Shown: positions 1-54,598, numbered from the stretch's first letter. The stretch: 64,000 nt of DNA from Phyllobates terribilis (GCF_046119375.1 NW_027362770.1:154504001-154568000), one strand, 5' to 3'. Notes: generated by a model from the sequence alone, not told the origin. Numbers and translations: made by a program.

Positions 1-1080
1 ATCAGTAATGTAATGTATGTACACAGTGATTCCACCAGCAGAATAGTGAGTGCAGCTCTGGAGTATAATACAGGATGTAACTCAGGATCAGTACAGGATC
101 AGTAATGTAATGTATGTACACAGTGATTCCACCAGCAGAATAGTGAGTGCAGCTCTGGAGTATAATACAGGATGTAACTCAGGATCAGTAATGTAATGTA
201 TGTACACAGTGACTGCACCAGCAGAATAGTGAGTGCAGCTCTGGAGTATAATACTGGATGTAACTGAGGATCAGTAATGTAATGTATGTACACAGTGACT
301 GCATCAGCAGAATAGTGAGTGCAGCTCTGGAGTATAATACAGGATGTAACTCAGGATCAGTAATGTAATGTATGTACACAGTGACTGCACCAGCAGGATA
401 GTGAGTGCAGCTCTGGAGTATAATACAGGAGGTAACTCAGGATCAGTAATGTAATGTATGTACACAGTGACTGCACCAGCAGAATAGTGAGTGCAGCTCT
501 GGAGTATAATACAGGAGGTAACTCAGGATCAGTAATGTAATGTATGTACACAGTGACTGCACCAGCAGAATAGTGAGTGCAGCTCTGGAGTATAATACAG
601 GAGGTAACTCAGGATCAGTAATGTAATGTATATACACAGTGACTGCACCAGCAGAATAGTGAGTGCAGCTCTGGAGTATAATACAGGATGTAACTCAGGA
701 TCAGTAATGTAATGTATGTACACAGTGACTGCACCAGCAGAATAGTGAGTGCAGCTCTGGAGTATAATACAGGATGTAACTCAGGATCAGTACTGTAATG
801 TATGTACACAGTGACTGCACCAGCAGAATATTGAGTGCAGCTCTGGAGTATAATACAGGAGGTAACTCAGGATCAGTACTGTAATGTATGTACACACTGA
901 CTGCACCAGCAGAATAGTGAGTGCAGCTCTGGAGTATAATACAGGATGTAACTCAGGATCAGTACAGGATCAGTAATGTAATGTATGTACACAGTGATTC
1001 CACCAGCAGAATAGTGAGTGCAGCTCTGGAGTATAATACAGGATGTAACTCAGGATCAGTACAGGATCAGTAATGTAATG
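1..1080. repeat. 86-bp satellite array, left block (runs off window start)
   Basis: Unit GGATCAGTAATGTAATGTATGTACACAGTGACTGCACCAGCAGAATAGTGAGTGCAGCTCTGGAGTATAATACAGGATGTAACTCA; the 64-aa minus-strand ORFs recur every 86 bp. Confidence 0.97.
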
Positions 1081-4000
1081 TAGGCACACAGTGACTCCAC
1101 CAGAAGCATACTGGGTGCAGCTCTGATCAGCTGCTAGTCAGTGTGCTGATTACGGGTGTGGTGGCTGCAGATCCTGCTGTGAGCTCCTGATCTCTGAGAA
1201 ACCAACACCTCTCCACCTGGGAACCTGCTCTCTCTCTTTCCCAGAGAGAGAGCGGGTTTCTGGGATGAGTGAAGGAGCCAAGTCCCAGGCTTCTGCTTCC
1301 CGAACCAGGCCGGCGGGGGGCAGAAAAAAACAGCAACCGGCCTGCACATCAGAGGACTCGGGGGTGAGACGCTGCACCAGGAGTCGCAGCAATGTGGCTC
1401 CTACTCCCCCCGGGATTGTGGAGACCCCTAGAAGCCGCAAGGCTTCCAGCATGGAGGAAAAGCCTGACAGCGGCGTGCATGATGGCGCTCCTTCCGGAGG
1501 AAAGCTGAGTGCTCATGGAGGTGAGGCCGACCTCCCTGAGGGGGGTTGGGCGCTGCAGGGACCCCGGGAGTCTGTGTCCACCTATGCCTCCCGGGTCATG
1601 ATCCACCTCCGTGAGTATGAAGATGCCAGTAAGCTCATCAGGAGGCTCCGGGAGGAGCTGCGCTGCACAAGCGCAAAAGCTGCAGGGGCCTCCAAACCAA
1701 GGAAGGCCAAGCTCCAGGCTGAAGTAAAGAGGCTCACCAGTGAGATTCACCTGCTGGAAATAAGGAAAGCCACCATCAGAGAGCAGAGTGGTCCATTCAA
1801 AGAAAAACTAATAAATGAAGACCGCTACAGAGAAATGGCTGATACCAGAGAGCAAAGGCGGATGGGGCTGCAGCCTGAGAGCCAGGTGGATGATGAGAGT
1901 GATGATGACCAGCAGGAAGCCCCACCTGGCAGCCTGCAAAGTCACCCGCAGGCCACGTGCAGCGAGCTCCCTGCAGGACAGGCGACAGTGACATCCGGTC
2001 GCAGTTCTGCTGGCTCTGGGGAGGACAGTGACAGCAGTGGCCAGGGAGGGGCGCTAATGGCCGAGATTAAGCTCCCGGAGTCCCCAGTGTGCCTCCAAAA
2101 CTTCCATCTTGGTGACGATCTACCAGAAGAGGCACCTGGGGGCCACAAAAAGGCAAAGAAGACCAAGCCAAAGCTGCAGGAAGCGGTAAGATACGTATAT
2201 GCCCCCCTCCCTGTACCCCCTGAGTCGGTGGCAGGCTCAGCTCGCTGTATAAGCCCCGTTGCCCAGCCCAGCCCGGGTTCTGCTGTGGATCCGGTGCAAA
2301 GGCGCGGGGAGATTGCACAGTGCGGTAGTGAGGCGCAGAGCTCCGTCTCTGCTTGTAGTAGCGGGGACGCAGCAGGAGGTGCATCAGCCGAGAGGCTGGA
2401 CAGTGAGGGCGGCCCGGCGGCGGGCGTTCCATCCGGCCACGATGCTGTGGTGCGCTCCTCAGTGGGAGGGGGGAGCAGCCCGGTGTCGGGGGCAGCTCCG
2501 GTAGCCTCGGCATCTCTGAATGCTGTTGCCGCTGATCACTTAGTTGAGAAGCGGCGGCAGTGTGAGGGGGCTGAGCGTTCCGGTCCTCCCACCAAAGTGC
2601 TATTTTGTGTTGGCGTCGCTGGTCCGGAAGATCCTGATGCTAAAGATCAGCGGCGCCTAACAGCAGCTAAAGATCAGCGGCACATTATACCGAATGCCAA
2701 ACAGCGGAAATTACCGACCAATGATGTGGAGGGCACACATAAGACCAGGGGTGAGGTCGTCTCCAGTTCTATGGAGGTGACTGAGCCCCTTGTGCCTGAT
2801 GCGGAGGTCAAAATGTCATCCGCCATTGTTACTGGTCCAGCAGGAATGAATGTGGTGGTAGGGGTGAATGAGGCTAATTCATTGTCTAGTGGTGTGGTTG
2901 CTGGTTTGGTGGAGGGTGAGATGGAGGTGGGTAATGGTGATGCTGTTGGGGCTGATGTGGTCACTGGTCCGGTTGCCCCCCCGGGGGTGGCAACACCTGT
3001 CCAGAGTTATGCCAGTGTCACCTCCGGGGCAAATAGGGCATCCTCCTCGTCTCCGGGCTTTGGGGATGGCATGTTGCAACGGCGCCTTCTGGAGGCTCTA
3101 AAGAAGGGGGAGAGATCACTAATGGTAGAGGGTCGAGAGGTTGATCTATCCTTCTGGATAGAGAGGCATGGCCTCGGGGCCTTCCGAGAGCAAAAAGGGG
3201 GAGATACAGTGTGGTCCATCCCAACAGCCGGGCCAGGCAGTGTGCGTAGGAATGTGGTCCGTCTTCGGTGGAGGGGCAGTGATGCATGTCCGCCAAGGTC
3301 TAAAGTTGTGGAGCTCCTGCTGAGGATGGGCTTCAAGGCGATTGACATCTACGCCTTGATACATCCCTATTCCACGCCTGAGTTTGATGTCAGCTTTGTT
3401 CGGCCGGAGGGGCTTGAGCTCTTCTGGGCGAATTATGAGTTGGCAAAAAATGAGCCCGGCTGGCGAGACTTTGCCGTTCAGGCAGTGTCTCGCCAAAACC
3501 AGATCAAGAAAGTGACCGTGATGACTCGTAACGAGTCGCTTTCTTGCTATGACATCATGACGTGGCTTGGTCGGTATGGAGAGGTGGTGGAGATGCCAAA
3601 GAAAAACCGCGACGAGTTTGGTATCTGGTCAGGGGCCTGGACGTTTATGGTAAAACTTAAGCGTTCAGGTGGTACGGTTGCCCACATTCCATCGTCTGCC
3701 TTCCTGGGTAGGGATCGTATCCTGGTCTTCTACCAGGGGCAACCGAAGCTCTGTCACAGGTGCGGCGACCCCACACACTTCAGTGCAAACTGCACCGTGC
3801 AGAAATGCGCGTTGTGTGGGGGTGTCGGCCATCTTGCTGCCTCTTGTGTGGAGATTAGGTGCCACCTGTGTGGTGAGTTAGGTCACCCATTCAGCCGTTG
3901 TCCTCACTCCTTCGCTAATGCAGTCGAGACCCCGGTGGGAGTAAGCCGTGAGGCCGATTCTGCTGGGGAGGGAACTAGCAGGGGTGGGGGAGCTGAGGGG

Positions 4001-7000
4001 CCAGGGAAGAAAAGCAATAAAAAGACGCCTGCCCAACTGAGGCGTCTAGACAAGCGCAGACAGGAGAGGGAGCGGGGCGAGCCCCAGACTACCGGGGCAG
4101 CCCCTGTCCTGGATGCCAGTCTTGCTGCTGAGGCCCCGAGGGATGATGAGTTGGATGAGGAGGTCAGGAGGATCCACAGGGAGGAAACTGCCTCTGCCTC
4201 AGAATCCTCCCATTATGAAAGTATGGATGAGGATAATAAGCGGTGGCTAGAGAACAAGCGTAAGCTCTGCACCAAAAAGAAGAAAAAAGAAGGGAGATAA
4301 AACATCTTCTCCCGCTCTGACCAAGGTACCTAAGGAAGGTAAAACTGACTCCCCTCTGGTTGGTCTTTCTAACCGGTTCCAAGCCCTTGATAACATCTCT
4401 TCCTCTGAGGAGGAGGCTGAGGGTGAGGTTCCGGCTTCAGCGGAGCTTACAGGGGGCGCCGAGTCTCCTTGTCCTGGGGATGCAAGGTCCTTGGGGGGAG
4501 GGACTGGCCCAGAGTCCGGAGACGAGGACGAGAAAAGAAGGAAAAATGATGAAATGGACACCTCTATGTCATTAAAGAGGGGGAAGGATTCCTCGTCTGA
4601 GGCAGAGGATAAGGGGAGTGGGAAGAGGAAAGCCGTCTAACTTAATCACCAATGATGGCGGTACCCACTCCGTTGACGCTGGCGTCCATTAATGTCGCCA
4701 GCATTAAGTCAAATATGGCTAGATTTGCGGCCTTTGATTTTCTCAGCCGGGTTGAAGCTGACATTTTCTTTTTGCAAGAGACCAGGCTGCCAAATATGGC
4801 AGAGGTGTTTATAGCTAAGAGGGAGTGGAGACTCGGGCCCTCCTATTGGTCTCTTGCGGCCGAGCCGTATAGCGGAGTGGCGGTCCTTTTTACCGCACCG
4901 GGAGAATGCCGACGGGTTATTGAGTTAGAAATGGGGAGGTGCCTGATATTAGATGTCCTCATGAAGGGACAAGAGCTCTGGCTCATTAACATCTATGGTC
5001 CCCAATCTAAGTGGGACCGGAAGTGTCTCTTTACGAGGATCAAGCCCTACCTTTTTACGAGTCGGCAGGTCGTCTTTGGAGGGGACTTCAACACTGTCAC
5101 AAGGCCCCGGGAAAGAGGAGGTTCCAGAGACAAGCTGACTTATGATAGCGTCGCCCTTAATAGTATAGCTAGTGAGGCTCGCCTGGTGGATGTCCACATC
5201 CGGCACACCGCAGGCCACGAGGGGTTCACCTATCATAGAGGTAACTGTAGGTCCAGGATAGACAGGTTTTATTTAAAGGAGGAAGCCGTCTCTTCAGCAG
5301 TATCTGTTGTTGAGGTGGAGTTCTCCGATCACTGTTTGATTTTGTTTTCCCTGAATGTTACAGAGACCCCCCGGATGGGAAGAGGCTTTTGGAGGCTCAA
5401 TTCGTCTCTCTTGGAAGAAGCGGAGATAAGACAGTCCTTTGAGGATTTTCTTCAGAGCCAGGTACCCTTACTGGATCTTTGTAGTAGTAAGTCAGAGTGG
5501 TGGGAGATGTTTAAGAAAAGGGTGGCGAGATTCTTCCGCCAGCTCTCGAGCCTCAGGAGCCTGGACAGGTATCGCCTGTATCAGGGCCTGAGGAGGAAAC
5601 TCAAGCATCTTGTCTCAACTGGAGGTAGCCGCGAGGAGATCTCCAGAGTGAAATCTTTGCTAATGAGGTGTCAGTATGATAGACACGCATCTTTGGTTTT
5701 TGAGAGGGATTACGGGAAGTACCGCTCGCCCGACCCTTACAGAAACTGCAAGATGTCAGTGAATAGTAAAGTTGTTACAGGACTGGTTGACACTGCGGGG
5801 TCCCTGAAAAGATCCAGATCAGGGATCCTGGAGGTCGTCAGATCCTTCTACTCGCACCTCTTGGGGAAGAGGGATCTGGATTGGGATGAGATGTCGGCTT
5901 TTCTGGCTGAAGCCGTCCCCGAACCAGGGGTAGACCCCTCTCTTGGTGTTTTGACAGAGATGATCAGGGAAGAGGAAGTTAAGTTGGCGACTGAAGGGCT
6001 TGCCCTAAAGAAATCTCGGGGTCCAGATGGCTTAACATCTGAATTCTATAAGACCTTTAAGGACGCCTTGGTTCCCCTCTTGACTGAGGTATTCAATGAG
6101 TCTCTTTCCTCGGGCACTCTGCCAAAGTCAATGAGGAGGTCTGCCCTGATCATCTTGTCAAAGGGTAAGGACCCATCTTGCATTGAGAATTGGCGTCCCA
6201 TAGCGCTTCTCAATGCAGACAGGAAGGTTTTGGCAAAGGTGCTGTTTAATCGGCTGGTGAAATTTGCACCCCAGCTCCTTTCGGGGGCCCAGCATTGCTC
6301 TGTTCCGGGCCGCAGTACAATTAGTGCTGTACTCTGTGTCCGAGAGGCGTTGGAGCAGGGTAGGGCTGGTCACTGGAAAGGTACATGCTGTCATTGGACC
6401 AGGCAAAAGTGTTTGATCGGGTTAATCATGAGTACCTCTGGTTTGTCCTTCTGAGGTATGGCCTGCCGGGGGGCTTTGTTGATTGGCTTAAGACCTTGTA
6501 CGCTGGGGCAGAGAGTTTCCCGCTTGTGAACGGTTGGATTGGCAGCTCTTTTGAGGTTGGGTGTGGTGTTCGCCAGGGTTGTCCGTTGAGCCCGCTACTG
6601 TACGCGTTTTCGATTGACCCACTTCTTAGGAGGGTGGAGCGTGGACCGTTGGCTGGGATCGGGATGGACCGGGCAGCACCGGAAGCCACTCTGAGAGTGG
6701 TGGCGTATGCCGATTACGTCACCGTTTTTGTTTCATCTGATGGGGAGGCAGAATGGCTGATGTCAGAGGTAAATCGCTACTCGGAGGCATCCAGGTCTAA
6801 GATCAACCGGGATAAGTGTGAGAGTCTCTGGCTGGGAGGAGGAGATCCTGGTTTTGATCTCCCGGACACCCTTCCAGAACCCAAAGTCTCTGCAAAAGTT
6901 CTTGCCATCGAATTTGGCCAGGGGGATTACCCCAAACAAAATTGGGACAGCAGGCTAGAGATCGCCACTCAGAAGGTGAACCAATGGAAGGGTTGGTCTT

Positions 7001-7966
7001 TGACCCTAAGGGAAAGGGTAAACCTGATCAAAACTTACCTGCTCCCTTTGCTGATCTATCTGGGCAGTGTGTGCATCTTGCCGGAGCCTCTCTGGACTCG
7101 GGTCTACAGTTTGTTCTTTCAACTGTTATGGGGGAATAGACTGAACCTGGTCAAGAGGGAGGTTACTTACCGTACAAGGAGACTAGGAGGGTTGGGTATG
7201 GTCAACCCTGTGGTATTCCTTGTAAATACCTTCATTAAGATCAATATTGCAAACCTCTGGAAAGAGAGGGCTCCTCCGTGGGTATTCTCCTGTAAGGGAT
7301 GGTTTCAGCCTTTCTTCCAGGAATGGGAGACAGGAGGGCAAGTGAAGGATCTCCGCACACCGCATGGACATCTCCCGGCTTACGCTACCGTGGTTCTGAA
7401 GGTAATTCGCCGGTGGGGTCTGGTCAGGACTCTGCCAAGGAAGCTCCTTGACAAAAGGGTTCTGTTGACCCATTTTCAGAGGCCTCTGGCGCTCAGGGAT
7501 TGCCCAAGTCGGGATCTTGGGGTGGGTCTGCATCTTTTGAATTCTATCAGGATCCCCTCGAAGGTTTGGGACTGGGCTTGGCGCTGCTTCCATGGGAAAC
7601 TGTGTGTGAGGGACAATCTGAAGTGTAGGAGCTCTGAGGACAGGAAATGTCGGGAGCATTGTGGTACCATGCTTGAAAGCATGGACCACTTCCTGCTTCG
7701 TTGTCCCTTTAACACAGAGGTGTACAACAGGGTGGGCGCCTCCATTGGCTGGCCCCGGCTGGCCGGTCTCTCTTATGCGGAATGGGCCTATGGAGCATTC
7801 GGGGACCTGGGTGGTCGGGACCGCTGCACCTTATTTCTAGTTAGCGCAGTGGTTAGGTATCACACGTGGAACGCACGGTGCTTAGTATCGACGCAGCGGA
7901 AAATCCTCCCAGTGGATGATGTGTTTAGGACCATACTCGGTGACCTGGTGAAGGTGCATTCTCTGG
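1081..7966 (+). mobile_element. Tx1-clade (L1 superfamily) non-LTR retrotransposon, decayed copy embedded in the 86-bp satellite
   Basis: Two-ORF layout: ORF1 with three CCHC knuckles, ORF2 with APE endonuclease, RT and C-terminal zinc finger. The same satellite flanks both sides. No 3' UTR or poly(A) is visible. Confidence 0.9.
1265..4300 (+). CDS. Tx1-like ORF1p (nucleic-acid binding, ZCCHC3-like region, 3x CCHC zinc knuckle)
   Basis: 1011-aa ORF containing CHRCGDPTHFSANC, CALCGGVGHLAASC and CHLCGELGHPFSRC. It probably once extended to TAA 4638-4640 through frameshifts (LSNRFQAL motif in another frame near 4370). Confidence 0.85.
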   Translation: MSEGAKSQASASRTRPAGGRKKQQPACTSEDSGVRRCTRSRSNVAPTPPGIVETPRSRKASSMEEKPDSGVHDGAPSGGKLSAHGGEADLPEGGWALQGPRESVSTYASRVMIHLREYEDASKLIRRLREELRCTSAKAAGASKPRKAKLQAEVKRLTSEIHLLEIRKATIREQSGPFKEKLINEDRYREMADTREQRRMGLQPESQVDDESDDDQQEAPPGSLQSHPQATCSELPAGQATVTSGRSSAGSGEDSDSSGQGGALMAEIKLPESPVCLQNFHLGDDLPEEAPGGHKKAKKTKPKLQEAVRYVYAPLPVPPESVAGSARCISPVAQPSPGSAVDPVQRRGEIAQCGSEAQSSVSACSSGDAAGGASAERLDSEGGPAAGVPSGHDAVVRSSVGGGSSPVSGAAPVASASLNAVAADHLVEKRRQCEGAERSGPPTKVLFCVGVAGPEDPDAKDQRRLTAAKDQRHIIPNAKQRKLPTNDVEGTHKTRGEVVSSSMEVTEPLVPDAEVKMSSAIVTGPAGMNVVVGVNEANSLSSGVVAGLVEGEMEVGNGDAVGADVVTGPVAPPGVATPVQSYASVTSGANRASSSSPGFGDGMLQRRLLEALKKGERSLMVEGREVDLSFWIERHGLGAFREQKGGDTVWSIPTAGPGSVRRNVVRLRWRGSDACPPRSKVVELLLRMGFKAIDIYALIHPYSTPEFDVSFVRPEGLELFWANYELAKNEPGWRDFAVQAVSRQNQIKKVTVMTRNESLSCYDIMTWLGRYGEVVEMPKKNRDEFGIWSGAWTFMVKLKRSGGTVAHIPSSAFLGRDRILVFYQGQPKLCHRCGDPTHFSANCTVQKCALCGGVGHLAASCVEIRCHLCGELGHPFSRCPHSFANAVETPVGVSREADSAGEGTSRGGGAEGPGKKSNKKTPAQLRRLDKRRQERERGEPQTTGAAPVLDASLAAEAPRDDELDEEVRRIHREETASASESSHYESMDEDNKRWLENKRKLCTKKKKKEGR

Positions 7967-7992
7967 ACACAGTGACTGCACCAGCAGAATAG
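4652..7992 (+). pseudogene. Tx1-like ORF2p (APE endonuclease - reverse transcriptase - zf-RVT), frameshifted
   Basis: APE motifs SINVASI, LQETR, GGDFN, SRIDRFYL and FSDH; RT motifs ENWRPIALLN, LDQAKVFDRV and GVRQGCPLSP. There is a frameshift near 6375-6385. The catalytic YADD reads YADY (6706-6717). The stop TAG 7990-7992 lies inside satellite sequence. Confidence 0.9.
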
Positions 7993-10900
7993 TGAGTGCA
8001 GCTCTGGAGTATAATACAGGATGTAACTCAGGATCAGTAATGTAATGTATGTACACAGTGACTGCACCAGCAGAATAGTGAGTGCAGCTCTGGAGTATAA
8101 TACAGGATGTAACTCAGGATCAGTAATGTAATGTATATGCACAGTGACTGCACCAGCAGAATAGTGAGTGCAGCTCTGGAGTATAATACAGGATGTAACT
8201 CAGGATCAGTAATGTAATGTATATGCACAGTGACTGCACCAGCAGAATAGTGAGTGCAGCTCTGGAGTATAATACAGGATGTAACTCAGGATCAGTAATG
8301 TAATGTATGTACACAGTGACTGCACCAGCAGAATAGTGAGTGCAGCTCTGGAGTATAATACAGGATGTAACTCAGGATCAGTAATGTAATGTATGTACAC
8401 AGTGACTGCACAGCAGAATAGTGAGCGCAGCTCCGGAGTATAATACAGGATGTAACTCAGGATCAGTAATGTAATGTATGTACACAGTGACTGCACCAGC
8501 AGAATAGTGAGTGCAGCTCTGGAGTATAATACAGGATGTAACTCAGGATCAGTAATGTAATGTATGTACACAGTGACTGCACCAGCAGAATAGTGAGTGC
8601 AGTTCTGGAGTATAATACAGGATGTAACTCAGGATCAGTAATGTAATGTATGTACACAGTGACTGCACCAGCAGAATAGTGAGTGCAGCTCTGGAGTATA
8701 ATACAGGATGTAACTCAGGATCAGTAATGTAATGTATGTACACAGTGACTGCACAGCAGAATAGTGAGCGCAGCTCCGGAGTATAATACAGGATGTAACT
8801 CAGGATCAGTAATGTAATGTATGTACACAGTGACTGCACCAGCAGAATAGTGAGTGCAGCTCTGGAGTATAATACAGGATGTAACTCAGGATCAGTAATG
8901 TAATGTATGTACACAGTGACTGCACCAGCAGAATAGTGAGTGCAGCTCTGGAGTATAATACAGGATGTAACTCGGGATCAGTAATGTAATGTATGTACAC
9001 AGTGACTGCACCAGCAGAATAGTGAGTGCAGCTCCGGAGTATAATACAGGATGTAACTCAGGATCAGTAATGTAATGTACGTGCACAGTGACTGCACCAG
9101 CAGAATAGTGAGTGCAGCTCTGGAGTATAATACAGGATGTTACTCAGGATCAGTAATGTAATGTATGTACACAGTGACTGCACCAGCAGAATAGTGAGTG
9201 CAGCTCTGGAGTATAATACAGGATGTAACTCAGGATCAGTAATGTAATGTATGTACACAGTGACTGCACCAGCAGAATAGTGAGTGCAGCTCTGGAGTAT
9301 AATACAGGATGTAACTCAGGATCAGTAATGTAATGTATATGCACAGTGACTGCACCAGCAGAATAGTGAGCGCAGCTCCGGAGTATAATACAGGGTGTAA
9401 CTCAGGATCAGTAATGTAATGTATGTACACAGTGACTGCACCAGCAGAATAGTGAGTGCAGCTCTGGAGTATAATACAGGATGTAACTCAGGATCAGTAA
9501 TGTAATGTATGTACACAGTGACTGCACCAGCAGAATAGTGAGTGCAGCTCTGGAGTATAATACAGGATGTAACTCAGGATCAGTAATGTAATGTATGTAC
9601 ACAGTGACTGCACCAGCAGAATAGTGAGTGCAGCTCCGGAGTATAATACAGGATGTAACTCAGGATCAGTAATGTAATGTACGTGCACAGTGACTGCACC
9701 AGCAGAATAGTGAGTGCAGCTCTGGAGTATAATACAGGATGTTACTCAGGATCAGTAATGTAATGTATGTACACAGTGACTGCACCAGCAGAATAGTGAG
9801 TGCAGCTCTGGAGTATAATACAGGATGTAACTCAGGATCAGTAATGTAATGTATGTACACAGTGACTGCACCAGCAGAATAGTGAGTGCAGCTCCGGAGT
9901 ATAATACAGGATGTAACTCAGGATCAGTAATGTAATGTATGTACACAGTGACTTCACAAGCAGAATAGTGAGTGCAGCTCTGGAGTATAACTCTAGAAGT
10001 AACTCAGGATCAGTAATGTAATGTATGTACACAGTGACTGCACCAGCAGAATAGTGAGTGCAGCTCTGGAGTATAATACAGGATGTAACTCAGGATCAGT
10101 AATGTAATGTATGTACACAGTGACTGCACCAGCAGAATAGTGAGTGCAGCTCTGGAGTATAATACAGGATGTAACTCAGGATCAGTAATGTAATGTATGT
10201 ACACAGTGACTGCACCAGCAGAATAGTGAGTGCAGCTCTGGAGTATAATACAGGATGTAACTCAGGATCAGTAATGTAATGTATATGCACAGTGACTGCA
10301 CCAGCAGAATAGTGAGTGCAGCTCTGGAGTATAATACAGGATGTAACTCAGGATCAGTAATGTAATGTATGTACACAGTGACTGCACCAGCAGAATAGTG
10401 AGTGCAGCTCTGGAGTATAATACAGGATGTAACTCAGGATCAGTAATGTAATGTATGTACACAGTGACTGCACAGCAGAATAGTGAGCGCAGCTCCGGAG
10501 TATAATACAGGATGTAACTCAGGATCAGTAATGTAATGTATGTACACAGTGACTGCACCAGCAGAATAGTGAGTGCAGCTCTGGAGTATAATACAGGATG
10601 TAACTCAGGATCAGTAATGTAATGTATGTACACAGTGACTGCACCAGCAGAATAGTGAGTGCAGCTCTGGAGTATAATACAGGATGTAACTCAGGATCAG
10701 TAATGTAATGTATGTACACAGTGACTGCACCAGCAGAATAGTGAGTGCAGCTCCGGAGTATAATACAGGATGTAACTCCGGATCAGTAATGTAATGTACG
10801 TGCACAGTGACTGCACCAGCAGAATAGTGAGTGCAGCTCTGGAGTATAATACAGGATGTTACTCAGGATCAGTAATGTAATGTATGTACACAGTGACTGC

Positions 10901-12590
10901 ACCAGCAGAATAGTGAGTGCAGCTCTGGAGTATAATACAGGATGTAACTCAGGATCAGTACAGGATCAGTAATGTAATGTATGTACACAGTGACTGCACC
11001 AGCAGAATAGTGAGTGCAGCTCTGGAGTATAATACAGGATGTAACTCAGGATCAGTAATGTAATGTATGTACACAGTGACTGCACCAGCAGAATAGTGAG
11101 TGCAGCTCTGGAGTATAATACAGGATGTAACTCAGGATCAGTAATGTAATGTATGTACACAGTGACTGCACCAGCAGAATAGTGAGTGCAGCTCTGGAGT
11201 ATAATACAGGATGTAACTCAGGATCAGTAATGTAATGTATGTACACAGTGACTGCACCAGCAGAATAGTGAGTGCAGCTCCGGAGTATAATACAGGATGT
11301 AACTCAGGATCAGTAATGTAATGTATGTACACAGTGACTGCACCAGCAGAATAGTGAGTGCAGCTCCGGAGTATAATACAGGATGTAACTCAGGATCAGT
11401 AATGTAATGTATGTACACAGTGACTTCACAAGCAGAATAGTGAGTGCAGCTCTGGAGTATAACTCTAGAAGTAACTCAGGATCAGTAATGTAATGTATGT
11501 ACACAGTGACTGCACCAGCAGAATAGTGAGTGCAGCTCCGGAGTATAATACAGGATGTAACTCAGGATCAGTAATGTAATGTACGTGCACAGTGACTGCA
11601 CCAGCAGAATAGTGAGTGCAGCTCTGGAGTATAATACAGGATGTTACTCAGGATCAGTAATGTAATGTATGTACACAGTGACTGCACCAGCAGAATAGTG
11701 AGTGCAGCTCTGGAGTATAATACAGGATGTAACTCAGGATCAGTAATGTAATGTATGTACACAGTGACTGCACCAGCAGAATAGTGAGTGCAGCTCCGGA
11801 GTATAATACAGGATGTAACTCAGGATCAGTAATGTAATGTACGTGCACAGTGACTGCACCAGCAGAATAGTGAGTGCAGCTCTGGAGTATAATACAGGAT
11901 GTTACTCAGGATCAGTAATGTAATGTATGTACACAGTGACTGCACCAGCAGAATAGTGAGTGCAGCTCTGGAGTATAATACAGGATGTAACTCAGGATCA
12001 GTAATGTAATGTATGTACACAGTGACTGCACCAGCAGAATAGTGAGTGCAGCTCTGGAGTATAATACAGGATGTAACTCAGGATCAGTAATGTAATGTAT
12101 ATGCACAGTGACTGCACCAGCAGAATAGTGAGTGCAGCTCTGGAGTATAATACAGGATGTAACTCAGGATCAGTAATGTAATGTATGTACACAGTGACTG
12201 CACCAGCAGAATAGTGAGTGCAGCTCCGGAGTATAATACAGGATGTAACTCAGGATCAGTAATGTAATGTATGTACACAGTGACTTCACAAGCAGAATAG
12301 TGAGTGCAGCTCTGGAGTGTAATACAGGATGTAACTCAGGATCAGTAATGTAATGTATGTACACAGTGACTGCACCAGCAGAATAGTGAGTGCAGCTCTG
12401 GAGTATAACTCTAGAAGTAACTCAGGATCAGTAATGTAATGTATGTACACAGTGACTGCACCAGCAGAATAGTGAGTGCAGCTCTGGAGTATAACTCTAG
12501 AAGTAACTCAGGATCAGTAATGTAATGTACGTGCACAGTGACTCCACCAGCAGAATAGTGAGTGCAGCTCTGGAGTATAATACATGATGT
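7967..12590. repeat. 86-bp satellite array, right block (~53 units)
   Basis: Same unit as 1-1080, highly homogeneous, with recurring variant blocks. It ends near 12590 (GATGTAACTGCTGGG). Confidence 0.97.
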
Positions 12591-13467
12591 AACTGCTGGG
12601 AGATGTTCAGCAGGGCTGTATAAGCGGCTCACTGCTGCCCCCTGGCCTATCACCGCTGACTTGCCACTTGTGATTGACAGCTGGAGATCTTGCGTCACTA
12701 ACATGAATCTCCAGCAGCAGGACAGCGCCCACTGGTGTCCCCCTCGCTTACTACAGCCTGTACCTGCTGCACAGACGCCGCCGATGCCCGGTGTTCTGAA
12801 TACGGGGACGTCTGCCTTCGGACCGACGCTATTTCACATCCACAACATCTTCATAGTGATAGATGACAGGAGCCATCTTTCCGGATCAACCTGAGCAGAC
12901 TACGGGTGGCCACTGAGACCAAACAAATGCTGTGGATAGGAACGCATCATCAGTCGATCAGCTCTAGATCACCATCTAGTGTTCATCTCTGATATTACAG
13001 GCAGCATTTTTTGGAACCAGAAAATGATATGTAATTAGTCGTGTGATAAATATTTATCATTAATACAAAAAATAAAATTCAAGTGGGGTCTCATTGTTAG
13101 GATCAAGGGCAAACATAACACATTCTTTGCAGTGGTGGTGCACAAAACTGCATGCGTCCCGCCATATTTTTTATTGGATGCGCTAAATGGCATTTTTGCT
13201 GTAAAAACCTGCAGTTTCGACACCTGGTTGTCAGCTTTGCTGCACAACCATCATGTTAGGGTGAGTTACCTATAGGTGGCGCTAGAGGCAGTTCTCTCCT
13301 TTCTGGGAGGGAGCTAATTTGCATAGATTTCCCAGGATGCTGCTGGGTCTCCATAAGTCTTCTCTATCCATTCCTGACGTCACGATCTCTGCTTGCCGTC
13401 AGTCAATGCTCTTCTTCCAGTGAATAAATATCGGTCCAAGTTAAAGGGGACAGCCACTAATAATGCT

Positions 13468-17110: not shown

Positions 17111-31268
<14,158 letters not shown>

Positions 31269-36708: not shown

Positions 36709-54598
<17,890 letters not shown>

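Follow-up and report, generated by a model that had tools for sequence, protein, structure and literature searches.

It is rather probable, in our judgement, that the window, as the 64,000-nucleotide stretch of Phyllobates terribilis DNA analysed here is called, contains one member, frameshifted and cut short at its 3' end, of a young two-ORF APE/RT retrotransposon family that occupies one position and one orientation of an 86-bp satellite, and that is likely to integrate by target-primed reverse transcription with a satellite RNA leader of about 45 nt, which would pair with the target and, by prediction, folds onto the element's first 42 bases. What is taken from observation in this reading is the site specificity, the uniformity of the junctions, the scarcity of 5' truncation, the substitutions peculiar to the leader and the complementarity. 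The window copy is laid out as follows.

1..1080, + strand: upstream satellite array (the target) of 86/97-bp units, extending about 1.2 kb beyond the window start
1081..1125, + strand: satellite-derived leader, likely element-borne, with young-subfamily marks at 1107, 1111 and 1114
1089..1167, + strand: predicted sense-strand hairpin, in which leader 1089-1122 is paired with element 1129-1167
1126..1264, + strand: element-specific 5' UTR, with the uniform junction GCTCTG joined to ATCAGC
1265..4640, + strand: ORF1, coding for two RNA-binding domains of ZCCHC3 type and for a CCHC knuckle; in this copy a frameshift lies near 4283
4652..7966, + strand: ORF2, with APE endonuclease, RT and zf-RVT; frameshifted near 6383, the final 22 codons gone
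7960..7967, + strand: copy-specific break at which about 750 nt (end of ORF2 and 3' UTR) are absent and the satellite restarts off the family's site
7967..12594, + strand: downstream satellite array, 53.7 units

A sequence-only reading of the window had described a retrotransposon lying in phase within an 86-bp satellite, and the arrays at 94-1061 and 7967-12594 do flank the element on both sides. The segment 1081-1125, which that reading took for a diverged satellite unit, has the 7 mismatches in 45 that it reported, and array units, for which it gave usually 0-3, differ by 0-4 (30 of 62 at 0, one at 4); its correspondence of 1086-1125 to 7967-8006 (5 mismatches) is likewise found, and the element proper begins at 1126. 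Two of the seven mismatches, at -43 and -22, are private to the window copy (1/72 adjacent units each), those at -41 (7/72) and -29 (29/72) are polymorphic, and the remaining three are typical of the young subfamily (60-64/72). ORF2 does run into the satellite, ending SLDTVTAPAE and a stop. The lack of a 3' UTR is nevertheless no trait of the family but a truncation of the window copy, since 29/29 other copies continue ORF2 (EYERLG...FSVP, then stop) and carry a 3' UTR; the satellite-supplied stop codon is thus an accident of the loss of about 750 nt. The preserved satellite phase is equally accidental, because 8 nt of the unit are missing at normal junctions, and the supposedly invariant TAGGC start varies among copies. 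What did happen to the window copy is the third alternative offered at the time, loss of the 3' end into the array. Recombination at an 11-nt match between ORF2 and satellite was tried as the cause of the break and rejected, with 0 genome matches and no match in L142.

The proposal that the family is specific for the satellite was upheld. A search with 7700-7966, from which the best 30 of 40 matches were examined, yielded 29 other loci, and in 29/29 of them satellite ending GCTCTG lies directly upstream in one phase; 3' ends found without use of their flanks adjoin the same unit position in 59/59 cases, these being the ends analysed from the first 60 of the matches listed. The old subfamily has the same satellite phase in 29/29 other loci. 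A family counts as target-specific, by the criterion of one survey, when more than 20% of its flanks are one repeat (PMC4494074); here 59/59 and 29/29 lie in satellite.

Normal copies have a 0.7-kb 3' UTR and end AAGATC joined to TACAGG (class A), a pattern with 589 exact matches in the genome, 554/589 of which continue ATCTACAG. A second 3' end (class B), in which GGCTGG is joined to ACCAGCAG and the last 66 nt with AATAAA are missing, has 343 exact matches, many of them in one cluster on C3. Of the 29 other loci, 19 belong to class A (two with point variants) and 7 to class B; 1 more ends prematurely at the class A site, and in the remaining 2 an interruption precedes any satellite. Exact 5' junctions number 983 genome-wide against 932 3' ends of both classes, a comparison that is rough because the search patterns differ in length; the family thus comprises roughly one thousand relatives at one satellite spot, within a satellite of at least 209,799 units that makes up about 0.17-0.2% of the 10.6-Gb genome. 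Xstir, a MITE-borne tandem repeat, has an 86-bp unit, and arrays of that kind would be bounded by shared inverted termini; the array ends here vary in phase and flank, and many of these ends are other insertions.

Copies are 98.6% identical at the median (72 copies), and both ORFs are fully open in 2/79 (L127 and L142). The family tree is star-like, with two subfamilies at one site, labelled old and young from branch lengths. Because array lengths vary by locus, outer array flanks are mostly unrelated and the satellite units adjoining the element follow local array variants, the copies argue for independent insertions. Multiplication of one ancestral insertion carried along passively with the satellite arrays would account for local duplicates such as L095/L096, L170/L171 and the C3 cluster, yet the unrelated outer flanks, the locally matched adjacent units, the star-like tree and the use of one site by two subfamilies make it exceedingly unlikely as the origin of the family.

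Several features of the arrays were noted in passing. Two elements stand in tandem, with one to few satellite units between them, at L007, L025, L043, L057, L110, L141, L149 and L181; a dense one-strand cluster of class A and class B copies at C3:78-87 Mb is probably a large tandem duplication; and just upstream of the window the same array holds an insert of about 4 kb (L062:4876-8837) with an RT region, which we take to be L2/CR1-like, and an (AAT)n tail. Empty variant units as preferred targets were considered and dropped, with only 13 matches, of which the 12 viewed comprised 10 satellite and 2 element. In a contig from another organism the terminal/satellite junction is the same but follows a different 3' UTR (cf. 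L142:8896), a hint that the target may be common to another species.

Class B does not cluster on the tree (14 changes versus 15.7 when shuffled, 91/500 shuffles being as low; 59 rows, in a test weakened by mosaicism) and occurs on old and young UTR types and several haplotypes, with partial association to some SNPs. An origin as a single lineage was unsupported on these grounds and was set aside, and class B is likely to have arisen repeatedly and also to have propagated. The UTR 13-mer before its junction matches the satellite at 10 positions and ends in ACCAG, and this 5-nt match between 3' UTR and satellite would be the route of repeated origin; as its source, either internal priming at a second nick or re-cutting followed by microhomology repair would fit.

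The satellite-like 5' segment of about 45 nt, which the sequence-only reading proposed as a target mimic, appears indeed to travel with the element. In the satellite unit directly upstream (unit -1), substitutions at -19, -15 and -12 are present in 72, 73 and 69 of 83 copies, as against 1, 3 and 2 of 579 distal array units, and units -2 and -3 are near background; it is therefore likely that about 45 nt of satellite accompany the element as a leader. Substitutions -29C (34/83, background 40/579) and -44C (10/83, background 4/579) are also enriched independently of the local array, whereas a 5-nt deletion, an 11-nt insert, -71G and variants from about -46 outward track it, from which the RNA is inferred to start at -44 to about -50. 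Downstream of the element, agreement with the local array is seen from a variant as close as +7 (p=0.009), so that co-transfer is one-sided, extending at least 19 (probably 44) nt upstream and less than 7 nt downstream, which fits an RNA leader. Linkage of -29C and -44C to SNPs of the element (8/100 and 64/100 permutations) gave no confirmation of an RNA start at -44 to about -50, and depletion of the 11-nt insert in unit +1 (7/54 versus 114/323) is counted against the leader model.

Copies of this family are almost always complete at the 5' end. The full junction lies within 8.9 kb in 57/79 copies, 0/79 are truncated against satellite, and of the 13 interrupted class A copies that could be checked, 10 have a 5' junction on the same strand 9-29 kb further up. 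The sole copy 5'-truncated against satellite across loci L001-L225 is L063, which is doubly truncated, begins after CTCTGGAG and resumes exactly at AA^TACAGG; this copy is the one hint of two target cuts about 5 nt apart. No target-site duplication was found in class A copies, where units -1 and +1 share variants in 4/33 informative copies versus 0-8 of 30-35 controls, a comparison that duplications shorter than about 10 nt could escape; it speaks against the old 40-bp duplication suggested earlier and led to rejection of a hidden one of about 30 nt.

These observations can be assembled into target-primed reverse transcription with leader annealing like that of R2, each step of which is conjectural. 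The RNA would start 44-50 nt upstream within satellite sequence and would probably read a few bases beyond the AATAAA-bearing 3' end; the endonuclease would nick the bottom strand opposite TATAA^TACAGG; and the end of the cDNA would anneal to an upstream satellite unit and prime the second strand, for which reason cDNAs that stop early would seldom integrate. Copies look mosaic, and DNA-level exchange probably also occurs. If such exchange were the main route, the endonuclease would break an empty array and repair would copy the whole element from an occupied one, co-converting its flanks, which would account for full-length copies, mosaic haplotypes and the spread of class B without its last 66 nt and AATAAA. 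The one-sidedness of co-transfer, the conservation of the RT frame (82%) to sister families with other targets and the resemblance of L063 to a primed product all speak against homing of this kind, and we regard it as improbable.

On the sense strand, the leader and the first 42 nt of the element are complementary. The predicted fold reaches -46.3 kcal/mol in the young subfamily (0/300 shuffles) and -39.5 in the old (3/300), and the sense strand is the more stable in 122/122 copies; under DNA parameters the cDNA of the old subfamily is no less stably folded than its sense DNA (-15.3 versus -14.4). The old subfamily combines a plain satellite leader with a complementary arm and the young a substituted leader with a changed arm: pair -15:+16, which is C-G in 84, G-C in 32 and unpaired in 8 of 124 junctions, changes from G-C to C-G between old and young, while three pairs are changed one-sidedly, one or two are new and one has disappeared, in an alignment of 16 rows hand-picked from the 124 junctions. 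Such covariation is a single subfamily transition with no independent events and is counted against the hairpin. The young subfamily has lost pair -11:+12, and in 38/90 a basal pair is broken by -29C. The 3' strand of the basal helix is rich in G/T (56-60% pairing persists in slid controls) and resembles the 5' UTR of a sister family, whose own 5' hairpin has no significance (z +0.2 to -2.2).

It is accordingly possible, if doubtful, that the element is target-specific while its hairpin is a functionless fold-back fossil polished by template switching, as the one transition, the loss of pairs at two positions and the sister family's insignificant hairpin would allow. Templated DNA copying would not be expected to keep or create G-U pairs as seen here (A-U to G-U at -12, G-U kept at -17), and 7/8 counted inter-subfamily substitutions keep or gain pairing. 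In the preferred reading, the leader would be caged within the RNA by this hairpin, which is rich in G-U pairs. A further suggestion goes beyond this, namely that an APE-type LINE independently evolved a guide-like 5' end, a hairpin-held target-derived leader that integration requires for its completion; the copies that land would then be full-length (7.6 kb) almost without exception, and precisely placed even where the 3' terminus is missing. We put this suggestion forward tentatively.

An HDV-like ribozyme at the junction, freeing the RNA from a satellite co-transcript as in R2, was examined because of an Rfam match to the CPEB3 ribozyme at 1080-1178 (E=0.0038, 21.6 bits), with three leader substitutions at P3/L3-like positions. 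The score lies under the gathering score of 35, the match weakens to E=0.35 in L142 and is absent from the old subfamily, and a strict descriptor found 0/32 and 0/90 junctions (0/20 and 0/19 out to +900 nt); relaxed matches (31/32 and 76/90) give differing example topologies in the two subfamilies, and the long hairpin competes with the ribozyme fold. The candidate was dropped after the strict-descriptor zeros and the sub-gathering score, and a junction ribozyme is very unlikely. The 5' UTR contains a second long hairpin, at 1206-1276 in the window, with sub-threshold miRNA-type matches only in Rfam.

The proteins are those of an APE non-LTR element of L1/Tx1 type, with RNA binding and a CCHC motif in ORF1 and APE, RT and a C-terminal zinc finger in ORF2, and the closest solved structures are L1 endonuclease/ORF2. 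This architecture agrees with the Tx1 clade as a candidate placement; named relatives, down to about 45% identity, are all frog proteins, with no Tx1-labelled sequence among them or in the tree that was built. They represent an unnamed anuran lineage (Xenopus, Leptobrachium, Pelobates, Bufo) that shares an ORF2 of about 1130 aa, is 45-81% identical and forms one well-supported group of 13 rows. A sister family in the Phyllobates genome, its ORF2 82% identical to that of the satellite-targeting family, differs in using an AG(C/T)TCCAG motif instead of the satellite, and no satellite was found within 1.5 kb downstream of 60 of its loci. It forms head-to-tail arrays (L286-L289, L300-L305) of about 9-kb period on many chromosomes (e.g., C5:143638000-143694000), with AG(C/T)TC(C/T)A(G/C) after 39/39 3' ends and also at its own 5' start. 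A second sister group (L290-L298) has about 600 nt of upstream sequence common to 7-8 copies. Having a different target, the sister family can serve as a natural counterpart for mapping how targets are chosen.

Tx1L has a 23-bp target-site duplication, and the R2 endonuclease is restriction-like. Target-specific Tx1-clade families include Tx1L in Tx1D, Keno, Kibi/Koshi and Tx1-Mar (PMC4494074; PMC1950540), and the legend of Fig. 3 in one source already has 'Sat, satellites' among known Tx1 targets (PMC4494074), so that the targeting of satellites is in itself nothing new for the clade. The frog family resembles these as a non-LTR element of APE type that is restricted to a multicopy target, and differs in that no target duplication was found, 5' truncation is almost lacking, the target-derived leader pairs with the UTR and a second 3' end recurs, satellite-labelled families being compared by legend label only. 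R2 elements that self-cleave upstream in 28S have a target-derived 5' leader of 9-36 nt and an annealing model (PMC3774820). Target-derived leader, uniform 5' junctions, propagated substitutions at the junction and target-element pairing are common to both, whereas R2 has an HDV ribozyme and the frog family an APE enzyme, a leader of about 45 nt and a simple hairpin with no detectable HDV fold. The literature covered, whose scope did not extend to Repbase and subscription journals, yielded no account of the frog family and none of an APE element with a paired leader derived from its target.

The joining of LINE 5' ends and their frequent truncation are still poorly understood outside R2, and a vertebrate APE family that was active recently, has about a thousand uniform junctions, shows almost no truncation and includes copies with both ORFs open allows the leader-annealing model to be put to the test within the L1/Tx1 group. 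Full-length site-specific insertion, the trait seen here, is what retrotransposon-based gene delivery lacks. Elsewhere in the window, 46036-51995 holds gag/pol frames between 99-bp repeats at both ends, which we take to be LTR retrotransposon-like, and the frame at 29437-30463 is presumably a Tc1-like transposase.
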